Virus record (IMG/VR): IMGVR_UViG_2645727901_000008 | Strand: one strand, 5' to 3' | DNA from: a virus | Taxonomy: Duplodnaviria > Heunggongvirae > Uroviricota > Caudoviricetes | DNA: 64,000 bases | In this document: one piece after another, positions 36,733-42,177 of the stretch | How positions within the stretch are numbered: position 1 is the first letter of the stretch | Layout: every line of letters starts with the position of its first letter | Position numbers and translations under genes: made by a program | The notes under the pieces: model-generated | Database searches by the model: none | The model's input: the letters and a program-made list of their open reading frames with translations, nothing else | Told to the model about the DNA's origin: nothing

Positions 36733-37307
36733 CAGAAAGCCTCCCAGTCAGTCGCGATAATATCCACACCAGTTGCAAACCAGTCTGTCTGCGCCTGTAA
36801 ATCACCATTCATCATTACCAGGCGAGGCATCACCATCACATCGCACCCTTCCACAATATCGAATGCCTCTTCCGGCAAGAATTCGAAGAGCTTTTCTTTG
36901 CTGCCAATGCTGCCACGGAACATCGATATATAGCTCCCTTTAGGCCATGATGTCCGCCGGGCATCAAGCCCTTTCATCATCCAGTAAAAAGCCGAGGAAA
37001 AAGGGATATTCTTTTTGCCAATGATTACATTATTCGCTTCTGTGTACTTCAGGAACTTAACTAACCTTACCATTGACTCGGATAACGCAACGTATGGCTC
37101 ATGATTGATTGCTGACACGCTTACACCGTGCAATCCAACGCTTACCACTGTCATATCGCCGCTTTGTGCGGTTTCGATATTGACGCCTTTGCGAACTAAT
37201 GAGGCGTAAAGTTCCTCTCGCTTTTGGGTCCAGCGTTCACGCTTCCCTATGAAGTCACTCAAAATGAGATCTTCTTCTGCATATGCGTTATCGTTCGCCA
37301 TTAACAT
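36732..37307 (-). CDS. hypothetical protein
   Basis: AGGAG RBS 6 nt from ATG 37307. Confidence 0.45.
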   Translation of the reverse strand: MLMANDNAYAEEDLILSDFIGKRERWTQKREELYASLVRKGVNIETAQSGDMTVVSVGLHGVSVSAINHEPYVALSESMVRLVKFLKYTEANNVIIGKKNIPFSSAFYWMMKGLDARRTSWPKGSYISMFRGSIGSKEKLFEFLPEEAFDIVEGCDVMVMPRLVMMNGDLQAQTDWFATGVDIIATDWEAF

Positions 37308-37762
37308 AACGTCTCCTTTTTTACACGCGCGACTATCCCCCGGAAGTACCGGTAGTGATGTCGTAACTTCGTATTAATTAAGGGGTACAGCCTGAGCGGC
37401 TATATGATGAATTGAAAGGAGTTGTGGCGGTGGTGCCTCCACCTGCCAGGTTAGCCACTCCCGGCGACGTCACTTATCAGAACGTAGTGAATGAAAATGG
37501 CTTCGTCACGAGCGCATAGCCGCAATTACCACAACGGAAACGGCGCTCACGCTAATTAAACGCCTTTTCCTGTTGTGCGCCGTACTCTTCCGGCTGTCAC
37601 ACCGAATCGCCAGGATGGTGAGTCCTCGGTCCGACGATATGAACGGGGCTTGCACATTCCGGCTACCTGGTTTGTTGCCTGAGCTAGGGGAAAAGGTAAC
37701 CCCTTTAACGTCACCAGACCGCTAACGACGCATGTGCCATACGCCGTGTTACAACCAAATAT

Positions 37763-37838
37763 GGTGGCCCCTACCGGACTTGAACCGGTGACCGTGCGAT
37801 TATGAGTCGCCAGCTCTAACCACTGAGCTAAAGGGCCA
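37763..37838 (-). tRNA. tRNA with anticodon CAT, ileX-like (probable tRNA-Ile2 lysidine type, alternatively Met)
   Basis: GGCCCTTTAGCTCAGTGGTTAGAGCTGGCGACTCATAATCGCACGGTCACCGGTTCAAGTCCGGTAGGGGCCACCA. Cloverleaf with a 7-bp acceptor stem. Very similar to E. coli ileX. Confidence 0.8.
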
Positions 37839-37847
37839 ATTAGTGTT

Positions 37848-37961
37848 TTATTTTCGACGCCTGAGATTCTTCGCGACTTGTTCTACGCCGTATACGATCA
37901 CAAGTAGAAACAGCAAAAACCATCCAGGGTTCTTATCGATATACGTCCAAAAATCCATCAT
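37848..37961 (-). CDS. small membrane protein (37 aa), third gene of the TerB-like operon
   Basis: MMDFWTYIDKNPGWFLLFLLVIVYGVEQ... ATGA coupling with the upstream small gene. Confidence 0.35.
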   Translation of the reverse strand: MMDFWTYIDKNPGWFLLFLLVIVYGVEQVAKNLRRRK

Positions 37962-38122
37962 GAGTTCCTGAACGCACCTTCAATAATCGGCAATAGCAAT
38001 ACCACAGCTACTGAAACTAATGCCCCATCAGCCAACACCGACATCACTTTGCTGGTGAAATCCACCAGTACGGACAAAACGAGAAAGCCAATGGCGCCCG
38101 CAATACGCGCCTTGCCAATCAT
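37959..38122 (-). CDS. small membrane protein (54 aa) coupled to the TerB-like gene
   Basis: MIGKARIAGAIGFLVLSVLVDF... TAATG overlap with the TerB-like stop. Confidence 0.4.
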
Positions 38123-38556
38123 TACAGATAATCTTCCACACGAAGGCCAAGACGGCGACCAACCTCTTCCAGAACCTTATGCTCCGCAGGTTCGATTTCA
38201 CCATCTGCTTCAGCGATCGTGAGCATGTTCACGAAGACTTCTTCCGCTTCTTTGGGATCGTTTTTGATATCTTCAATTTCGCGGAGGATATTCATGCGAC
38301 CAACACGGAAACCAGCTTCCAGTTGCTCAGTAAAACGGGTGATTGTTGCGGTAATTTCGTTGCCAAAATGACTTAAGCGAGGATTAGAGCGGACAAGCTG
38401 ATCAAGTTTCGCTGTTTCTTCCTTTTCGATTTCACCATCTGCGGCAGACACCAGCAAACAGCCACCGATGATGGCCTCCATCAGATCGCGATTCTCAACC
38501 CTTTTCAGCTCTACTTTTGCTGAAGCGACTTTCTTACCGAAAAATTTACCGAACAT
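38122..38556 (-). CDS. TerB-like tellurite-resistance-family protein (TciA-like)
   Basis: Two TerB-type repeats (AADGEIEKEE... and EADGEIEPAEHKVLEEV). GAGGGA RBS supports the MFGKFFGKK start at 38556. Confidence 0.65.
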   Translation of the reverse strand: MFGKFFGKKVASAKVELKRVENRDLMEAIIGGCLLVSAADGEIEKEETAKLDQLVRSNPRLSHFGNEITATITRFTEQLEAGFRVGRMNILREIEDIKNDPKEAEEVFVNMLTIAEADGEIEPAEHKVLEEVGRRLGLRVEDYL

Positions 38557-38823
38557 TGGTTTTCCCTCAATAAACATGACGTATTTATTAGGTTGCGGTG
38601 CCTGGTGCCTCCAGGTGACGTTAACCAGTTAACAATTAACGCCGGGATTTTTGTCTTCACAATTAAGGAGGATTGTTTTAACTGTTCCGCGTGCGCTTAG
38701 CCGCATTCACCGCAATGGTAAGAGCACTTGGCTGGCTGGGCGGCGATGACGCCTGTACGCATTTGGTGAACCGGTTCTGCTTCCGGCATTCGCTTAATTA
38801 GCCAAATACTCTTAACGTTGCAC

Positions 38824-38910
38824 TGGCGGAGAGTAATGGAATCGAACCATCATCGCTTGCGCAATGGGACGGTTTTCAAGACCGCTTGAGCACCATGCTC
38901 CCTACTCTCC
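38824..38910 (-). tRNA. tRNA-Ser (anticodon TGA), type II with long variable arm
   Basis: GGAGAGT...CGGTCTTGAAAACCG anticodon arm. Variable-arm stem CATTGC/GCGATG with GCAA loop. T-arm ATGGTTCGATTCCAT. 3' CCA encoded. 87 nt. Confidence 0.65.
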
Positions 38911-39282
38911 CGTTATTGTGGCGACCGGTGCTGATCTCCGGCTTGCGGTTATTTCAGACTCTCACGGGCGTTTAATTGCCCCGCCGAACAGCTCTTTTCC
39001 GCAATAGCTGCAATGTCTTTCGCGCATCAGCCTGCGCATTCACCACAATGTTGAGAACACTGGTTGTCACGCTGCAACGCAACATTTATTCGTAGATTGG
39101 GATATGACCCCGTTACGCCAGTGTTCTCAACGTTGTAGTGCCGGTTACGGTTCCGGCCAGGCCTCTTCCTCAACGGGTTGTTCTCCATACGGACTACCGT
39201 TTATTGGTCGTTCCTGCGGTTTATGTTGTGAAGCCAGATGCTTATCTTCTGGTTGCTTCAAAGAGCTGCACTTCATCACAAC

Positions 39283-39360
39283 GGTAAGGGTACTTCGTAG
39301 GGATTCGAACCCTCTGCCAAGCACGGCGATCTCCGACGTCGCAAAATACCCTTACCTGTT
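39283..39360 (-). other. tRNA-like fragment (T-arm-like GGGTTCGAATCCC flanked by a 10-bp inverted repeat GGTAAGGGTA/TACCCTTACC); not foldable as a canonical tRNA
   Basis: Manual cloverleaf attempts fail: there are 6 extra nt between the T stem and the acceptor. Confidence 0.3.
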
Positions 39361-39364
39361 GCGT

Positions 39365-39440
39365 TGGTGCCGATTAACGGGATCGAACCGCTGACCATTC
39401 GCTTACAAAGCGACTGCTCTACCAACTGAGCTAAACCGGC
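39365..39440 (-). tRNA. tRNA-Thr (anticodon TGT)
   Basis: GCCGGTTTAGCTCAGTTGGTAGAGCAGTCGCTTTGTAAGCGAATGGTCAGCGGTTCGATCCCGTTAATCGGCACCA. Confidence 0.8.
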
Positions 39441-39444
39441 AATT

Positions 39445-39531
39445 TGGTGGGGAGTGATGGAGTCGAACCACCCGAGTCGCAATGACAGTAGATTTACAGT
39501 CTACCCCGCTACCCCTACGGACTAACTCCCC
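39445..39531 (-). tRNA. tRNA-Tyr (anticodon GTA), type II
   Basis: Anticodon arm GTAGACTGTAAATCTAC. Long variable arm. Acceptor GGGGAGT/ACTCCCC. CCA encoded. Confidence 0.75.
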
Positions 39532-39536
39532 TAAAG

Positions 39537-39613
39537 TGGCGATGGTGGGTGGATTCGAACCACCGACCGACAGCTTAGAAGGCTGCTGCTCTATCCTACT
39601 GAGCTACACCATC
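39537..39613 (-). tRNA. tRNA-Arg (anticodon TCT, reads the rare AGA codon)
   Basis: GATGGTGTAGCTCAGTAGGATAGAGCAGCAGCCTTCTAAGCTGTCGGTCGGTGGTTCGAATCCACCCACCATCGCCA. Confidence 0.8.
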
Positions 39614-39619
39614 ACTTGC

Positions 39620-40680
39620 CGGGTACGTCTCCGGCGAGGGCTTCCACCTCCGTATGCTTTTCGGCGCACCGCGCCCTGGCTGCAATTCAGTAACAGGGGA
39701 TGCATAACCCTGGCTTCCAGCGTGATTAGCGCCTTCAGCATGACGGGATATACCCGTAACCAACAAACTTTCCCATATACCATCAAACAATGGCTGTTAC
39801 GCGGGAGGGACGTAACAGGTAAGGGCGCTGACCAGAAAGACCTGACCCTTCTCATTCATCTGGTTAATCACACCAGCGCCCTTGCCTGTTATGTCTCCCC
39901 GTTCCCTAATACACAGACGGGGACACTCTGCGGTCGATTTTTTGACGGGGGACGACTCATACCCCGTGGCGTCTGGCTTCTTAGGCCGCTACCATCATCA
40001 GATCATCGTTTGCATTTACTTTAATGGTCGGTTTCTAAACCGCCGCAAAGCCGCTAACCATGACGAAAACCCTAAAAAAGCCCACCCGAAGATGGGCAAA
40101 TACGCTACATCTCACACAAGAAAGAAGCCGACTGCCTGAGCTGGATTCACTTTCAAATGCCCGCAGAAAGGGAACACAAGTCGGCTTCTTTCTTGATGCG
40201 GCACTCTCTCCGCCCGTCACCGTTCTGTCTCGGTTGTCGCGTTTGCCACGCCAGCCGTAACGAGGTTTAAAGTCTTTGCACGTTTCCATCACTCGACTGC
40301 CGTCTGTGGCTGTTCGTTGCAGCGGGGGTGCCTCCCCCTGGGGATATCCCCGGCCTTACCCCATTCTTTCAAGACACAATGCAAGGCCGCATCCGCATAG
40401 GTGCATTACCGCAACATTAAGGAGACTTAGGGCAAAAGGTAATCGCCACAAAAAAAATCCCTATGCCTCCTTAATGTTGAGGATGTGCATTGATGATGAT
40501 TCGATGCGGCGAGTCCCGTTACTCTCTGCCGGACCATCATCAATGAACATCTTAAAAAGACCTTCCGTGGCTCAACATGTCTTGTCGTTTACTCCGTAAA
40601 GTGCTCTCTCTGAAACCACTTTACGCACTAAACCTGCTGAACTTTGGCTTGCTCGGTGCCAAAGCGAGTCCCTGTATGTA
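39620..40680 (-). other. roughly 1-kb GC-rich noncoding region with multiple long inverted repeats (candidate structured RNA(s) co-transcribed with the tRNA array)
   Basis: No convincing ORF on either strand. Perfect 16-bp IR AAGAAAGAAGCCGACT (40118..40133) / AGTCGGCTTCTTTCTT (40179..40194). 12-bp IR AACATTAAGGAG / CTCCTTAATGTT (40412..40477). 23-bp imperfect IR GGACGTAACAGGTAAGGGCGCTG / CAGCGCCCTTGCCTGTTATGTCTCC. Confidence 0.35.
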
Positions 40681-40682
40681 TG

Positions 40683-40697
40683 TAATTTTCTAACACT
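40683..40697. promoter_or_regulatory. motif TAATTTTCTAACACT
   Basis: Motif family member. Confidence 0.4.
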
Positions 40698-40836
40698 TTA
40701 ATTTGTTATTTGCTGGTGGGCGAACAACAACCAATAAGTGACTATCAAGCCCAGCAAGCGAAATGTGGCAACGCTCCACCAGCAAGGAAAATTCTAAGTT
40801 AAGTTACTCTCACAATCAATACGTTCGTTTAGTGAA

Positions 40837-40852
40837 ATTAGATTTCTAACAT
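40837..40852. promoter_or_regulatory. motif ATTAGATTTCTAACAT just 3' of the 40854 gene
   Basis: Motif family member. Confidence 0.45.
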
Positions 40853-40853
40853 T

Positions 40854-42074
40854 TTATTTCCCATAAAGATCTTCTACGCCCCCATTCTTCTTGTCCCATT
40901 CGTTAGCCCACACCCGGCAGGCATCAATAATTTCTTGACGACGGTCGCCCTGCATAAAGGGGATGCTTTCATGAAAACTACTTGGGATACAGGCCACGCT
41001 GAATACGGTATCAAACGCAGTCTGTTTGATAGCTTCCAACGTCTCTGGGCGCATTTTCAATTCATCGATCGGCGCATCCTTAGAGTCCATAATCCGGCGA
41101 TGCAGGCGCGGGAAATCAGTCTCCAGGTACGCCATAATTTTATCTGCCAGGCATTCGTCTATATCGGTATTCCAGTCCGTTTCGAAGCCGGGCAGGCGAT
41201 AGTAAAGCGGCGTTCCCCATACTGATGGGATCACATCCATCGTCAGCAGGCGGTTGGTTCTAATTTGTTGATGGTAATTAGCCGTCAACAGAGCTTCACC
41301 ACGCTGACCAGTCTCCGCAACCAGACCATGCGGGTACTCATGGATATAGGCAATAGCATCCACCCCGTCATACATGAGCGGGAATGTCTCTGGCCTTTGT
41401 CCCATACCACAAGCGCGGTTCAGATCATGACCAAGCTGTGAGCACTCTCGTTTCAGCGTTTCAATAATGTTCTGCGCTGTTGCTAACTTTTTACGCAGTG
41501 TGACGCCTTCGCCTTGATACTTAATGCATTGCTGATTCAGCTCTGTTAAACGCTCTTTTAGTTCCCGACGCTCTCTTTTCAGCGCACGGTTATCCTTCTC
41601 CGCAACATCCAGTCGTTTTGACAGACTGGCTGGATAGTCTTTTTTGTAACGACTCAAATCGGCTTCTGCGGATTTGCGCAGTGTGTTTGCCTGTTCAAGA
41701 CGCGCTTCCAGATTACCGATCTCACTACGCATATTCGCGGCAAATTGATTAACAGCATTGCCAAGACTTTCAACTGTCGCTGATACGCCTGTGACTTGTG
41801 AAAAACGGATCAAGCCATCATTAACGGCTTGTTGATATCCCTCAAACTGATCCACCAGCTTGTTGTAATCAACCGTCCCTTCCTCAAGTAGCTGGTTGAT
41901 CTCCGCGACCAGGTTATCAGTAGTGGCAATGACGCTCTCATGTAACCGTCTGGACAGGTCATCCCCCGGATTCCGCTTTTGAATAAGGGCGATCTGTGTC
42001 CGCAGCGTTTCAATCGCGGCTGAGATGATTTCCAGATTAGAAGTATCAGTTTGTTGACTCATTGCAGTTCCCAT
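40854..42074 (-). CDS. hypothetical protein with an N-terminal long coiled coil plus a C-terminal globular domain
   Basis: ORF 40854..42146. First in-frame ATG at 42074 (MGTAMSQQ...). Confidence 0.45.
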   Translation of the reverse strand: MGTAMSQQTDTSNLEIISAAIETLRTQIALIQKRNPGDDLSRRLHESVIATTDNLVAEINQLLEEGTVDYNKLVDQFEGYQQAVNDGLIRFSQVTGVSATVESLGNAVNQFAANMRSEIGNLEARLEQANTLRKSAEADLSRYKKDYPASLSKRLDVAEKDNRALKRERRELKERLTELNQQCIKYQGEGVTLRKKLATAQNIIETLKRECSQLGHDLNRACGMGQRPETFPLMYDGVDAIAYIHEYPHGLVAETGQRGEALLTANYHQQIRTNRLLTMDVIPSVWGTPLYYRLPGFETDWNTDIDECLADKIMAYLETDFPRLHRRIMDSKDAPIDELKMRPETLEAIKQTAFDTVFSVACIPSSFHESIPFMQGDRRQEIIDACRVWANEWDKKNGGVEDLYGK

Positions 42075-42087
42075 TGTTTTTTGCAAG

Positions 42088-42103
42088 ATTAGTTTTCTAA
42101 CAT
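42088..42103. promoter_or_regulatory. motif ATTAGTTTTCTAACAT about 14 nt upstream of the 42074 start codon
   Basis: Motif family member. Confidence 0.45.
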
Positions 42104-42177
42104 ATTTTATTAGTATGAGAACAAGAGCGAAAGATGTGATAAACAAAAAACCCGCTAATCGGCGGGTTTTTGAGCGG

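Follow-up and report, generated by a model that had tools for sequence, protein, structure and literature searches.

Genomic setting of the element

The stretch of DNA analysed here (IMG/VR record IMGVR_UViG_2645727901_000008; 64,000 nucleotides (nt), hereafter the window) belongs to a phage-plasmid of the P1 family and is of the D6 type. Over 39000-41000 it shares 93% identity with phage D6, and over 39614-40853 it shares 99.4% identity with one Escherichia coli plasmid. Five transfer RNA (tRNA) genes, beginning with tRNA-Arg(UCU) (39537-39613, minus strand) and continuing with Tyr, Thr, Ser and Met, are followed on the other side of a gene-free gap by a pmgS-like coding sequence (CDS; 40854-42146, minus strand). 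Since all six lie on the minus strand, the 1.24-kb gap 39614-40853 is upstream of the tRNA array and in the same orientation, which agrees with a sequence-only reading of the window that had placed it between a protein gene and tRNA-Arg. Here, we describe an element within this gap, on the minus strand from 40071 to 39614: a predicted RNA in which an antisense copy of part of the host transfer-messenger RNA (tmRNA; gene ssrA) is fused to a tag reading frame of the tmRNA type.

The counterpart of the region in P1 is the leader of the ban operon, where the promoter P1ban and the C1 operator Op72 are followed by an annotated 'dicF-like region', trnA, trnT, tciABC, trnI and ban; the P1 record annotates the stretch within the ban transcription unit and not as an origin. 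By analogy with P1, the region in the window is the putative non-coding leader of an early, repressor-controlled tRNA/ban operon of the phage. The genes for tRNA-Arg(UCU), tRNA-Tyr(GUA) and tRNA-Thr(UGU) (39365-39613, minus strand) stand directly 3' of the element and are presumably co-transcribed with it. Homology to P1 is limited to 39614-40100; the segment 40100-40853 is specific to the D6 lineage and is found at full length in 106 plasmids.

The view of the sequence-only reading that the region is free of genes and rich in inverted repeats was borne out. None of the six mechanical open reading frames (ORFs) has a match in Pfam, and their only match in PHROG is that of a plus-strand ORF spanning two tRNA genes to phrog_27020. 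This family (68 amino acids, function unknown) matches 39740-39944 (plus strand) inside the ORF 39482-40024 with E = 6e-42; it was probably built from gene calls opposite the RNA strand and would then be an annotation artefact of P1-like genomes. The largest ORF, 40276-40599, is broken among close relatives by a 1-nt or 3-nt difference in the length of a T run, and on these grounds 39614-40853 holds no credible gene. As for the repeats, the perfect 16-bp pair extends to 17 bp (40117-40133 / 40179-40195), the 12-bp pair and its 41-nt loop belong, as the core, to an imperfect repeat of greater length (40388-40432 / 40459-40503), and the 23-bp imperfect repeat covers 27 nt with 85% complementarity (39804-39830 / 39874-39900). 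The region had also been called GC-rich, which holds mildly for most of it (50-57% GC, against 47-53% in the flanks) and fails for 40600-40850, which is AT-rich (41-43% GC). The minus-strand RNA of 39614-40075 folds better than all of 100 shuffled sequences (z = -3.45).

A family of RNAs in unrelated phages

The part in common with P1 (40071-39614, minus strand) is, from its conservation, a predicted and unannotated RNA family. About 200 nt of it (40071-39871) match unannotated DNA of unrelated phages with 68-87% identity. The family is present in at least 256 GenBank phages of unrelated groups, in at least 120 contigs found by a scan of IMG/VR and in 561 of 5426 complete E. coli genomes (about 10%), where RefSeq annotation leaves it blank. 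Its carriers include Ackermannviridae, N4-like Schitoviridae, several siphovirus groups, a lambdoid Enterobacter phage and P1-like phages. In the other phages the element sits in gene-free gaps and is oriented with the neighbouring genes and tRNAs; among 104 distinct copies a tRNA gene lies within 1.4 kb downstream in 49, on the same strand in every case, and none is found in the remaining 55.

Fourteen homologues were aligned first, and clustering at 90% identity gave 52 clusters; 53 cluster representatives were used for the statistics. A covariance model built from these representatives finds exactly one copy per locus and matches the window at 39885-40055 with 115 bits. In the siphoviruses, a promoter of the form TTGACA-17-TAGATT ends about 13 nt before the antisense arm, so that the arm would form the 5' end of the RNA. 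The lambdoid Enterobacter phage MII_001 (locus L011, 1080-1420) carries the element directly downstream of the gene for the Q antiterminator, a late-leader position that tRNA genes occupy in other lambdoid prophages, and there it is overlapped by three small annotated 'hypothetical proteins'.

The 5' arm is an antisense copy of host tmRNA

The first 46 nt of the element (40071-40026, minus strand) form seven blocks that together constitute an antisense copy of nt 57-105 of the host tmRNA. The predicted target takes in pseudoknot 1 (PK1) and A86, the resume codon up to its second base, and codons 2-5 of the tag. The block GGUUUUCGUC would pair with GACGAAAACU of ssrA (nt 96-105, tag codons 3-5), with which the window arm makes 10 perfect pairs, and the block GUU with AAC (nt 93-95, codon 2). 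GCGGCU faces AGUCGC (nt 86-91), which runs from A86 to C91 and includes the two resume-codon bases. The other blocks fall on PK1, where UUGCGGC is matched by GCCGCAA (nt 74-80), UUUA by UAAA (nt 68-71), GA by UC (nt 65-66) and CCGACC by GGUUGG (nt 57-62).

The window arm and ssrA nt 57-105 are predicted to form 38 pairs at -48.6 kcal/mol, and RNAduplex places the 5' domain in the same register on ssrA nt 41-105 for all ten types examined. Averaged over the 53 representatives, the duplex has an energy of -44.5 kcal/mol, compared with -24.5 kcal/mol for dinucleotide shuffles (z = -5.3). Against the template of its own RNA the arm reaches -22.5 kcal/mol, approximately the level of the shuffles. 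When the arm is aligned to the reverse complement of ssrA the score is significant (z = +8.1), and when it is aligned to the sense strand it is not (z = -0.3); the arm is thus an antisense copy rather than a diverged PK1. The predicted pairing is confined to the arm, as nothing else in 40853-39614, including the strands of the long helix described below, stands out against host ssrA. A global sense alignment of the 487-nt element with ssrA is not significant overall (score 25, compared with 23.5 for shuffled sequences).

Two other assignments of this region were considered and rejected. The 5' region might have been a sense homologue of the 5' end of tmRNA plus PK1 (GGAUUCGAC compared with GGUUUUCGUC; UUUGCG...GAAAC), which the sense-strand value of z = -0.3 rules out. 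An upstream 'PK1-like' hairpin is 70.7% paired without covariation, and the region is instead antisense to the PK1 of the host.

The target is near-invariant in 117 ssrA genes of Enterobacterales, and it is because of this that the motifs of the arm are invariant across unrelated phages: its blocks are either unchanged or vary in ways compatible with wobble pairing (GCGACU, GCGGCU or GCGAUU opposite AGUCGC). Two sites of the target do vary between hosts, one being GGUUGG or GGUUUG and the other GUAAAAAG or GUUAAAAG. The Enterobacter phage MII_001 carries CGGACC together with UUUUAAG, and its arm favours the Enterobacter-type tmRNA by 2.5 kcal/mol. The arms of E. coli, Salmonella and most Klebsiella phages favour the E. 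coli-type tmRNA by 4-5 kcal/mol, those of the N4-like phages ECBP1, KP8 and Pylas favour the same type by only about 1.5 kcal/mol, and the arm of an Erwinia phage places an A opposite a U that is specific to Erwinia.

A resume-like codon and a ten-codon tag frame follow the arm

The arm is followed by an A-rich linker of 12 nt, AUUAAAGUAAAU (40014-40025, minus strand), which places U(-5)A(-4) before a resume-like codon; UAAAU|GCA is invariant in the 53 sequences. The reading frame of E. coli tmRNA is set by the 11 nt AAAAAAUAGUC that separate its PK1 from its resume codon, with A86, at position -4, being indispensable (PMC2481249). The linker of the phage RNA, at 12 nt, is close to the host spacing of 11-12 nt between PK1 and resume codon.

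Next comes the frame GCA AAC GAU GAU CUG AUG AUG GUA GCG GCC UAA (39981-40013, minus strand), which reads ANDDLMMVAA and a stop. In the alignment of 14 homologues an invariant ...UAAAU GCA AAC GA... leads into this short frame, which has neither a start codon nor a Shine-Dalgarno sequence at 39981-40013. All 134 copies have exactly 10 codons and a stop, and they specify 20 distinct peptides. The tag frame varies like a coding sequence: the entropy at codon positions 1/2/3 is 6.3 / 4.2 / 9.0, third above first above second, and synonymous Ala and Asp codons are used, the final two alanines being GCG/GCA/GCU and GCC/GCG/GCU. The stretch therefore has the features of a tmRNA mRNA-like domain, namely a resume codon with an upstream U/A determinant and a short frame that closes with a hydrophobic/Ala-Ala C-terminus and a stop.

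The Rfam scan that the sequence-only reading had proposed gave one relevant result, a sub-threshold match of tmRNA_permuted to the tag stretch (23.6 bits, E = 0.007, with a gathering score of 47). Twelve homologues scored 22.8-33.7 bits with tmRNA_permuted (threshold 47) and 10.6-21.8 bits with beta_tmRNA (threshold 84); every homologue tested matches one or the other model, always below threshold and only through the tag template.

Pseudoknots and helices downstream of the template

The stop codon lies in the loop of a hairpin resembling tmRNA helix 5 (39967-39994, minus strand), the outer helix of which is 99.7% paired, with two-sided changes in 4/4 pairs. Pseudoknot a (39933-39966, minus strand) has a stem 1 of CGGGG/CCCCG, 99.3% paired, and a loop GUCG that pairs with CGAC downstream. 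Stem 1 occurs as UGAGG/CCUCA (28 sequences), CGGGG/CCCCG (25) and CAAGG/CCUUG (24), and stem 2 as CCGA/UCGG (46), GUCG/CGAC (22), CCAA/UUGG (3) and CCAG/CUGG (3). Pseudoknot b (39896-39931, minus strand) has a stem 1 of GCAGA/UCUGU and a loop UCCCCG that pairs with CGGGGA downstream. The variants of its stem 1 are CGCAC/GUGUG (49), CGCAGA/UCUGUG (13), CGCAU/AUGUG (7) and CAUGGA/UCCGUG (3), and those of its stem 2 are GCCCG/UGGGC (36), UCCCCG/CGGGGA (21), GCCCUGA/UCAGGGC (6), AUCCG/UGGAU (3), GGCGGGAG/CUCCCGCC and others; the stem-2 duplex has a mean of 5.7 bp, compared with 3.6 bp in shuffled sequences.

Taken together, the stop-codon hairpin and the two stem 1s are paired in 88.5% of cells and have 13 two-sided pairs, values that none of 500 shuffles reaches. 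Stem 2 of both pseudoknots also covaries; its pairings were tabulated for each sequence rather than as one bracket string, because MAFFT mis-registered the P1-type and siphovirus-type pseudoknots. The conserved pairs are rich in G-U wobbles on one strand only, one of them being G-U in 77 of 88 sequences.

Pseudoknot b is followed by the long helix (39804-39900, minus strand), which corresponds to the 23-bp repeat of the sequence-only reading and closes a 43-nt insert. It is kept in most family members despite wholesale change of its sequence, as in AACUGUAACGACGCU/AGCGUCGUUACAGUU (L059) and AAUGUUGAAAGCAUUU/AAGUGCUUUCAACCAU (L011), and its insert is hypervariable between phages. It may be a processing stem of the RNase III type. 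A hairpin read directly from the sequence, CUGUUACG-UCCCUCC-CGUAACAG (39794-39818, minus strand), is an alternative to the long helix, since its 5' arm and the 3' strand of that helix overlap. Modules with one and the same long helix of conserved sequence (CACAACAGGUAAGAGCAUUG ... CAGUGCUCUUUCCGUUGUG) also recur upstream and downstream of the element in other phages (L007 847-950, L011 approximately 1120-1215, L010 approximately 1365-1490, L014 1355-1465 and 1573-1660), with hypervariable inserts that are sometimes tRNA-like (T-loop UUCGAUU or UUCGACU); these modules may be decayed tRNA genes or processing cassettes.

The 3' domain (39614-39760, minus strand) is near-invariant in the window, D6 and P1 and ends at the first tRNA. 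It contains the hairpin GCCGG-AGACGUAC-CCGGC, and related hairpins are present in L004, L009, L010, L012 and L013. One 11-mer of this domain, GUGGAAGCCCU (approximately 39655-39645, minus strand), is identical in sense to ssrA downstream of the tag (GCGUGGAAGCCCUGCC), at about chance level by a rough estimate. Given that it is found on the side of the template where such a stretch would be expected, it is a weak lead that more of the element may derive from tmRNA.

Search for a tRNA-like domain

ARAGORN, run on the window, 14 homologous loci and 104 distinct contexts, detected no tmRNA. With the Rfam models for tRNA and tmRNA, only true tRNAs and the weak template matches came up, with no tRNA-like domain, and no acceptor stem with G3-U70 was found. 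In the siphoviruses there is also no room for a 5' acceptor strand, because the promoter ends about 13 nt before the arm. T-arm-like hairpins occur in the inserts of some relatives (GAAGAG-UUCGACU-CUCUUC in L011, GCGG-UUCGAUU-CCGC in L007 and AGAGG-UUUGAUU-CCUCU in L010). A circularly permuted tmRNA as a feature of the family was nevertheless rejected: these hairpins are inconsistent in position and order, are absent from the insert of the window and come with no G3-U70. At permissive thresholds, Rfam searches of the window, P1 and 12 homologues gave, beyond the tRNAs and the template, only chance miRNA-like matches to the long helix, and neither GOLLD nor ROOL was matched in the scans of the window.

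Upstream and downstream flanks

The AT-rich segment 40679-40851 contains the sole promoter-like site of the gap and two copies of a repeated motif. The core TTTCTAACA has 12 exact occurrences in the window with the common context AAATTAnnTTTCTAACA (2184, 15566, 16216, 19552, 30487, 31887, 40687, 40843, 42094, 43137, 53044 and 54251); with up to one mismatch allowed it has 17 matches compared with 5.1 expected, a number reached by none of 100 shuffles. In its first half, AAATTAnnTTTCTAACA is similar to the P1 C1 operator when the latter is reverse-complemented, and the motif is probably the operator of a D6-type C1 repressor. One putative operator of this type, AAATTAGATTTCTAACA (40835-40851, plus strand), lies just beyond the stop codon of the pmgS-like CDS and upstream of the promoter-like site; at the equivalent position P1 has the operator Op72 and the promoter P1ban. 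A second, weaker operator-like motif, which contains TTTCTAACA, is at 40679-40695 (plus strand). The sigma-70 promoter-like site, TTGATT-17-TAGAAT (40791-40819, minus strand), is the only such match in 39500-40950, where 1.4 are expected by chance. It is a candidate equivalent of P1ban because of its position, by analogy with P1, a single match being no better than chance.

Between this segment and the element lies the hairpin-rich leader of the D6 lineage (40098-40678, minus strand), which is absent from P1 and holds the inverted repeats 40117-40195 and 40388-40503. It is near-invariant among six D6-type replicons, with 188 predicted pairs and no two-sided changes, and it showed neither complementarity to tmRNA nor distant homologues. 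Immediately 5' of the arm, a GC-rich hairpin GCCCAUCUUCGGGUGGGC with U6 (40074-40097, minus strand) is kept in P1 and D6 and looks like an intrinsic terminator or attenuator. This hairpin is the 3' end of the annotated 'dicF-like region' of P1. That label was not upheld, as the Rfam model DicF has no match in 37000-42000 (E<=1), in 39614-40130 (E<=10) or in the P1 region (E<=5).

Several observations concern the tRNA array. The tRNA-Arg(UCU) of the window occupies the same position as the tRNA-Asn(GUU) of D6 and P1 (L001 3421-3496, L002 4419-4494), with near-identical acceptor, D and T arms; as it is mainly the anticodon arm that differs, it looks as if the anticodon arm had been replaced while the scaffold was conserved. 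Compared with D6 and P1, the window also carries an additional tRNA-Tyr, placed between tRNA-Arg and tRNA-Thr. The best model for tRNA-Ser(UGA) (38824-38910, minus strand), an unusual long-arm tRNA, is tRNA-Sec (43.5 bits, threshold 47), and tRNAscan assigned no amino acid to its counterpart in the D6 record. Between the TerB/TciA-like gene and tRNA-Ser, 38594-38714 (minus strand) matches STnc100, a gammaproteobacterial small RNA (sRNA), with 38.9 bits (gathering score 47, E = 5e-6), and a weaker match is found in ECBP1 (L003 2702-2785).

Proposed mode of action and alternatives

The interpretation that we consider the probable one is that the core of the element (at least 40071-39896, probably to 39614, minus strand) is a tmRNA-derived RNA acting in trans, which docks on the host tmRNA, masks its tag template and offers its own. 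Pairing of the arm would leave PK1 unfolded and would cover A86, the two resume-codon bases and tag codons 2-5. The phage RNA would then present, 12 nt past the last arm block, an unmasked replica of the covered signals: U(-5)A(-4), GCA, a 10-codon tag, the stop hairpin and the pseudoknots. The arm would leave this template free because the phage template differs from that of the host exactly at the positions that the arm reads. Since the phage RNA has no tRNA-like domain, host tmRNA-SmpB is assigned the role of the tRNA-like half and would supply alanylation and entry into the ribosome, with the docked phage RNA supplying the template. The notion of a docked surrogate template itself rests on a frame that varies like coding sequence, has no start signals and shares its RNA with no tRNA-like domain. 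Rescued ribosomes would add the phage-specified tag in place of ANDENYALAA, and the benefit would be that ribosome rescue is kept while the fate of the tagged proteins is changed during infection. There are precedents for parts of this: synthetic oligonucleotides complementary to tmRNA suppress trans-translation in vitro (PMC3384345), and tmRNA still rescues ribosomes when its PK1 or its tag sequence is changed (PMC2481249). The broader proposal is that several unrelated phage families, with P1 among their members, carry a 'template-swap' RNA. It would dock on the host tmRNA through about 40-50 bp of antisense pairing, silence the host template and bring a phage resume codon and tag frame to the equivalent position, forming a hybrid tmRNA in trans from the tRNA-like half of the host and the message of the phage. 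This proposal is put forward more tentatively, and we would not call it probable.

Several points weigh against docking with template replacement. That the pairing takes place in vivo, that the phage tag is translated on the hybrid and that this is of biological benefit is what we infer from sequence. At the two variable host sites the agreement between arm variants and hosts is suggestive, given that the host is known for few of the phages, and CGAACC, the variant of the N4-like phages, produces a G-G mismatch with the E. coli-type tmRNA. The ribosome may not tolerate an imperfect duplex of about 50 bp beside P2, and RNase III may simply cut it, which would fit plain inhibition. The overlapping helix-5-like hairpin could partly enforce the constant length of the tag. 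In P1-type and D6-type copies, the terminator-like hairpin and U6 stand directly 5' of the arm, so that expression needs read-through or processing. The interpretation also leaves roles unexplained for the leader 40098-40678, which is a conserved chain of hairpins, and for the long helix and the 3' domain (39614-39760).

The main rival is a pure antisense inhibitor, in which the arm blocks the host template or triggers cleavage, for example by RNase III, and tagging is shut down during infection; the template and pseudoknots would be untranslated and would serve as a scaffold or a stabiliser, or as a decoy that diverts SmpB, S1 or RNase R. The complementarity between arm and ssrA is equally evidence for this explanation. 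Long imperfect intermolecular duplexes are typical RNase III substrates, and that between arm and tmRNA would suit the enzyme. Synthetic oligonucleotides complementary to tmRNA are sufficient on their own to suppress trans-translation in vitro (PMC3384345). A phage-borne inhibitor of tmRNA would also have a precedent in the mini-tmRNA of mycobacteriophage DS6A, which comprises hardly more than a tRNA-like domain, and a similar molecule strongly inhibits tmRNA (PMC4131195). Nevertheless, inhibition alone leaves four features unexplained: the exact frame of 10 codons and a stop in 134/134 copies with coding-type variation, the invariant U(-5)A(-4), the constant 12-nt linker that mimics the host spacing from PK1 to resume codon, and the lack of complementarity between the template and its own arm (-22.5 kcal/mol). 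We therefore regard it as unlikely, although it deserves serious weight.

An autonomous phage tmRNA, two-piece or permuted, with its tRNA-like domain cryptic in the long-helix insert or drawn from the adjacent tRNA region, is in our estimate very improbable. The template, the stop-codon hairpin and the pseudoknots are tmRNA-like, the permuted models give their weak matches, T-arm-like hairpins are present in the inserts of L011, L007 and L010, and phage tmRNAs do exist in mycobacteriophages and Bacillus phage G (PMC4131195). Set against this, ARAGORN calls no tmRNA in the window or the 104 contexts, the Rfam models recover no tRNA-like domain, and the T-arm-like hairpins are sporadic, inconsistently placed and missing from the window insert, with no G3-U70. 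The siphovirus promoter leaves no 5' acceptor strand, and the 5' region is antisense and not homologous in sense.

Less probable again is a passive leader or processing scaffold, that is, a decaying captured fragment of ssrA that is co-transcribed and horizontally spread and that is inert towards trans-translation. It would suit the same-strand tRNA downstream of 49/104 copies and the flanking of the unit by long helices typical of processing stems. It accounts poorly for an intact frame, covarying pseudoknots and a host-matched arm kept across 52 clusters in unrelated phage families, and for the 55/104 copies that have no tRNA within 1.4 kb.

Finally, the sequence-only reading had suggested a structured DNA element such as an origin. 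That the many inverted repeats of this gene-free region act as DNA, as an origin or as a packaging or recombination site, deserves hardly any credence (DnaA boxes and iterons were not searched for), as the G-U wobbles fit the minus-strand transcript only, the pseudoknots and the strand-specific, coding-type frame are without counterpart in DNA elements, lytic siphoviruses carry the element directly behind a sigma-70 promoter, and P1 annotates a ban transcription unit here. The other suggestion of the sequence-only reading, a stable RNA co-transcribed with the tRNA cluster, fared better: the region is indeed non-coding, covariation of its helices is seen on the strand of the tRNAs, and a same-strand tRNA follows in 49/104 copies. 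What that suggestion missed is the identity of the RNA, in which a tag template of the tmRNA type is joined to an antisense copy of host tmRNA.

Relation to known RNAs

With bacterial tmRNA (SsrA; RF00023, and the two-piece/permuted forms RF01849, RF01850 and RF04321) the phage RNA has in common a GCA after U(-5)A(-4), a frame that starts with AND or ANE and ends with hydrophobic residues and AA or VA, a stop codon in a helix-5-like hairpin and H-type pseudoknots after the template; the tag of the window is ANDDLMMVAA where that of E. coli is ANDENYALAA. Unlike tmRNA, it has no tRNA-like domain, carries an antisense copy of nt 57-105 in the place of PK1, scores far below the Rfam gathering threshold (23.6 compared with 47 bits) and would act through another tmRNA.

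The only phage tmRNAs named in surveys of tmRNA are those of mycobacteriophages and of Bacillus phage G, together with the form of DS6A that has only a tRNA-like domain (PMC4131195, PMC11915505). The DS6A-type mini-tmRNA is thought to interfere with trans-translation of the host (PMC4131195; PMC11915505). This mini-tmRNA and the full-length phage tmRNAs of Bxz1-like mycobacteriophages and Bacillus phage G are likewise phage-borne derivatives of tmRNA. Nevertheless, DS6A keeps the tRNA-like domain and has no template, whereas the family of the window is the reverse, a template with an antisense arm; the hosts and phages are also different, being Enterobacterales and P1-like, N4-like, Ackermannviridae and several siphovirus groups. 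The synthetic anti-SsrA oligonucleotides used in cell-free translation are also complementary to tmRNA, but they are artificial, short DNAs without a replacement template, whereas the phage arm is a natural RNA of about 46 nt in seven blocks that is fused to a surrogate template.

Phages and prophages are also known to encode trans-acting antisense RNAs, such as P1 c4, DicF and anti-sRNAs such as AgvB/AsxR. Like these, the phage RNA is predicted to pair with an RNA encoded elsewhere, and in the siphoviruses its arm is at the 5' end. The predicted target is, however, a stable non-coding RNA of host translation rather than an mRNA or sRNA, and the duplex goes far beyond a typical seed. A location in the tRNA region of a phage, presumably with release from a common precursor, is a property that the element has in common with the species 1 and 2 RNAs of T4, GOLLD and ROOL. 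The Rfam models of GOLLD and ROOL do not match it, and T4-like phages matched the window through tRNA genes only. We know of no tmRNA-type template or anti-tmRNA arm in T4 species 1/2, GOLLD or ROOL.

Implications for phage biology

Trans-translation by tmRNA-SmpB is the main bacterial system for ribosome rescue and protein tagging as well as a drug target, and tmRNA has long been tied to the growth of phages such as lambda-immP22 and Mu. To our knowledge, phages have been known to interfere with it only through a tmRNA of their own or a fragment with only the tRNA-like domain, and full-text searches of the literature brought up no natural phage RNA directed against tmRNA. We rate the element as being of a new kind, with an anatomy that is well supported and a mode of action that we infer. 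Regions of this type are now left blank or given spurious 'hypothetical protein' calls, of which phrog_27020 is an example. The presence of the element in P1, which is among the best-developed phage systems, makes these proposals immediately testable.

A natural anti-tmRNA RNA with a replacement template would be a new class of host take-over factor. It would be the first natural regulator to base-pair with tmRNA and, if the template-swap proposal is true, possibly the first tmRNA to be put together in trans out of a host part and a viral part. That the element stands beside phage tRNA genes suggests a single module dedicated to ribosome stalling in infection; were the template swapped, stalled ribosomes would be rescued and their products would carry a tag chosen by the phage.

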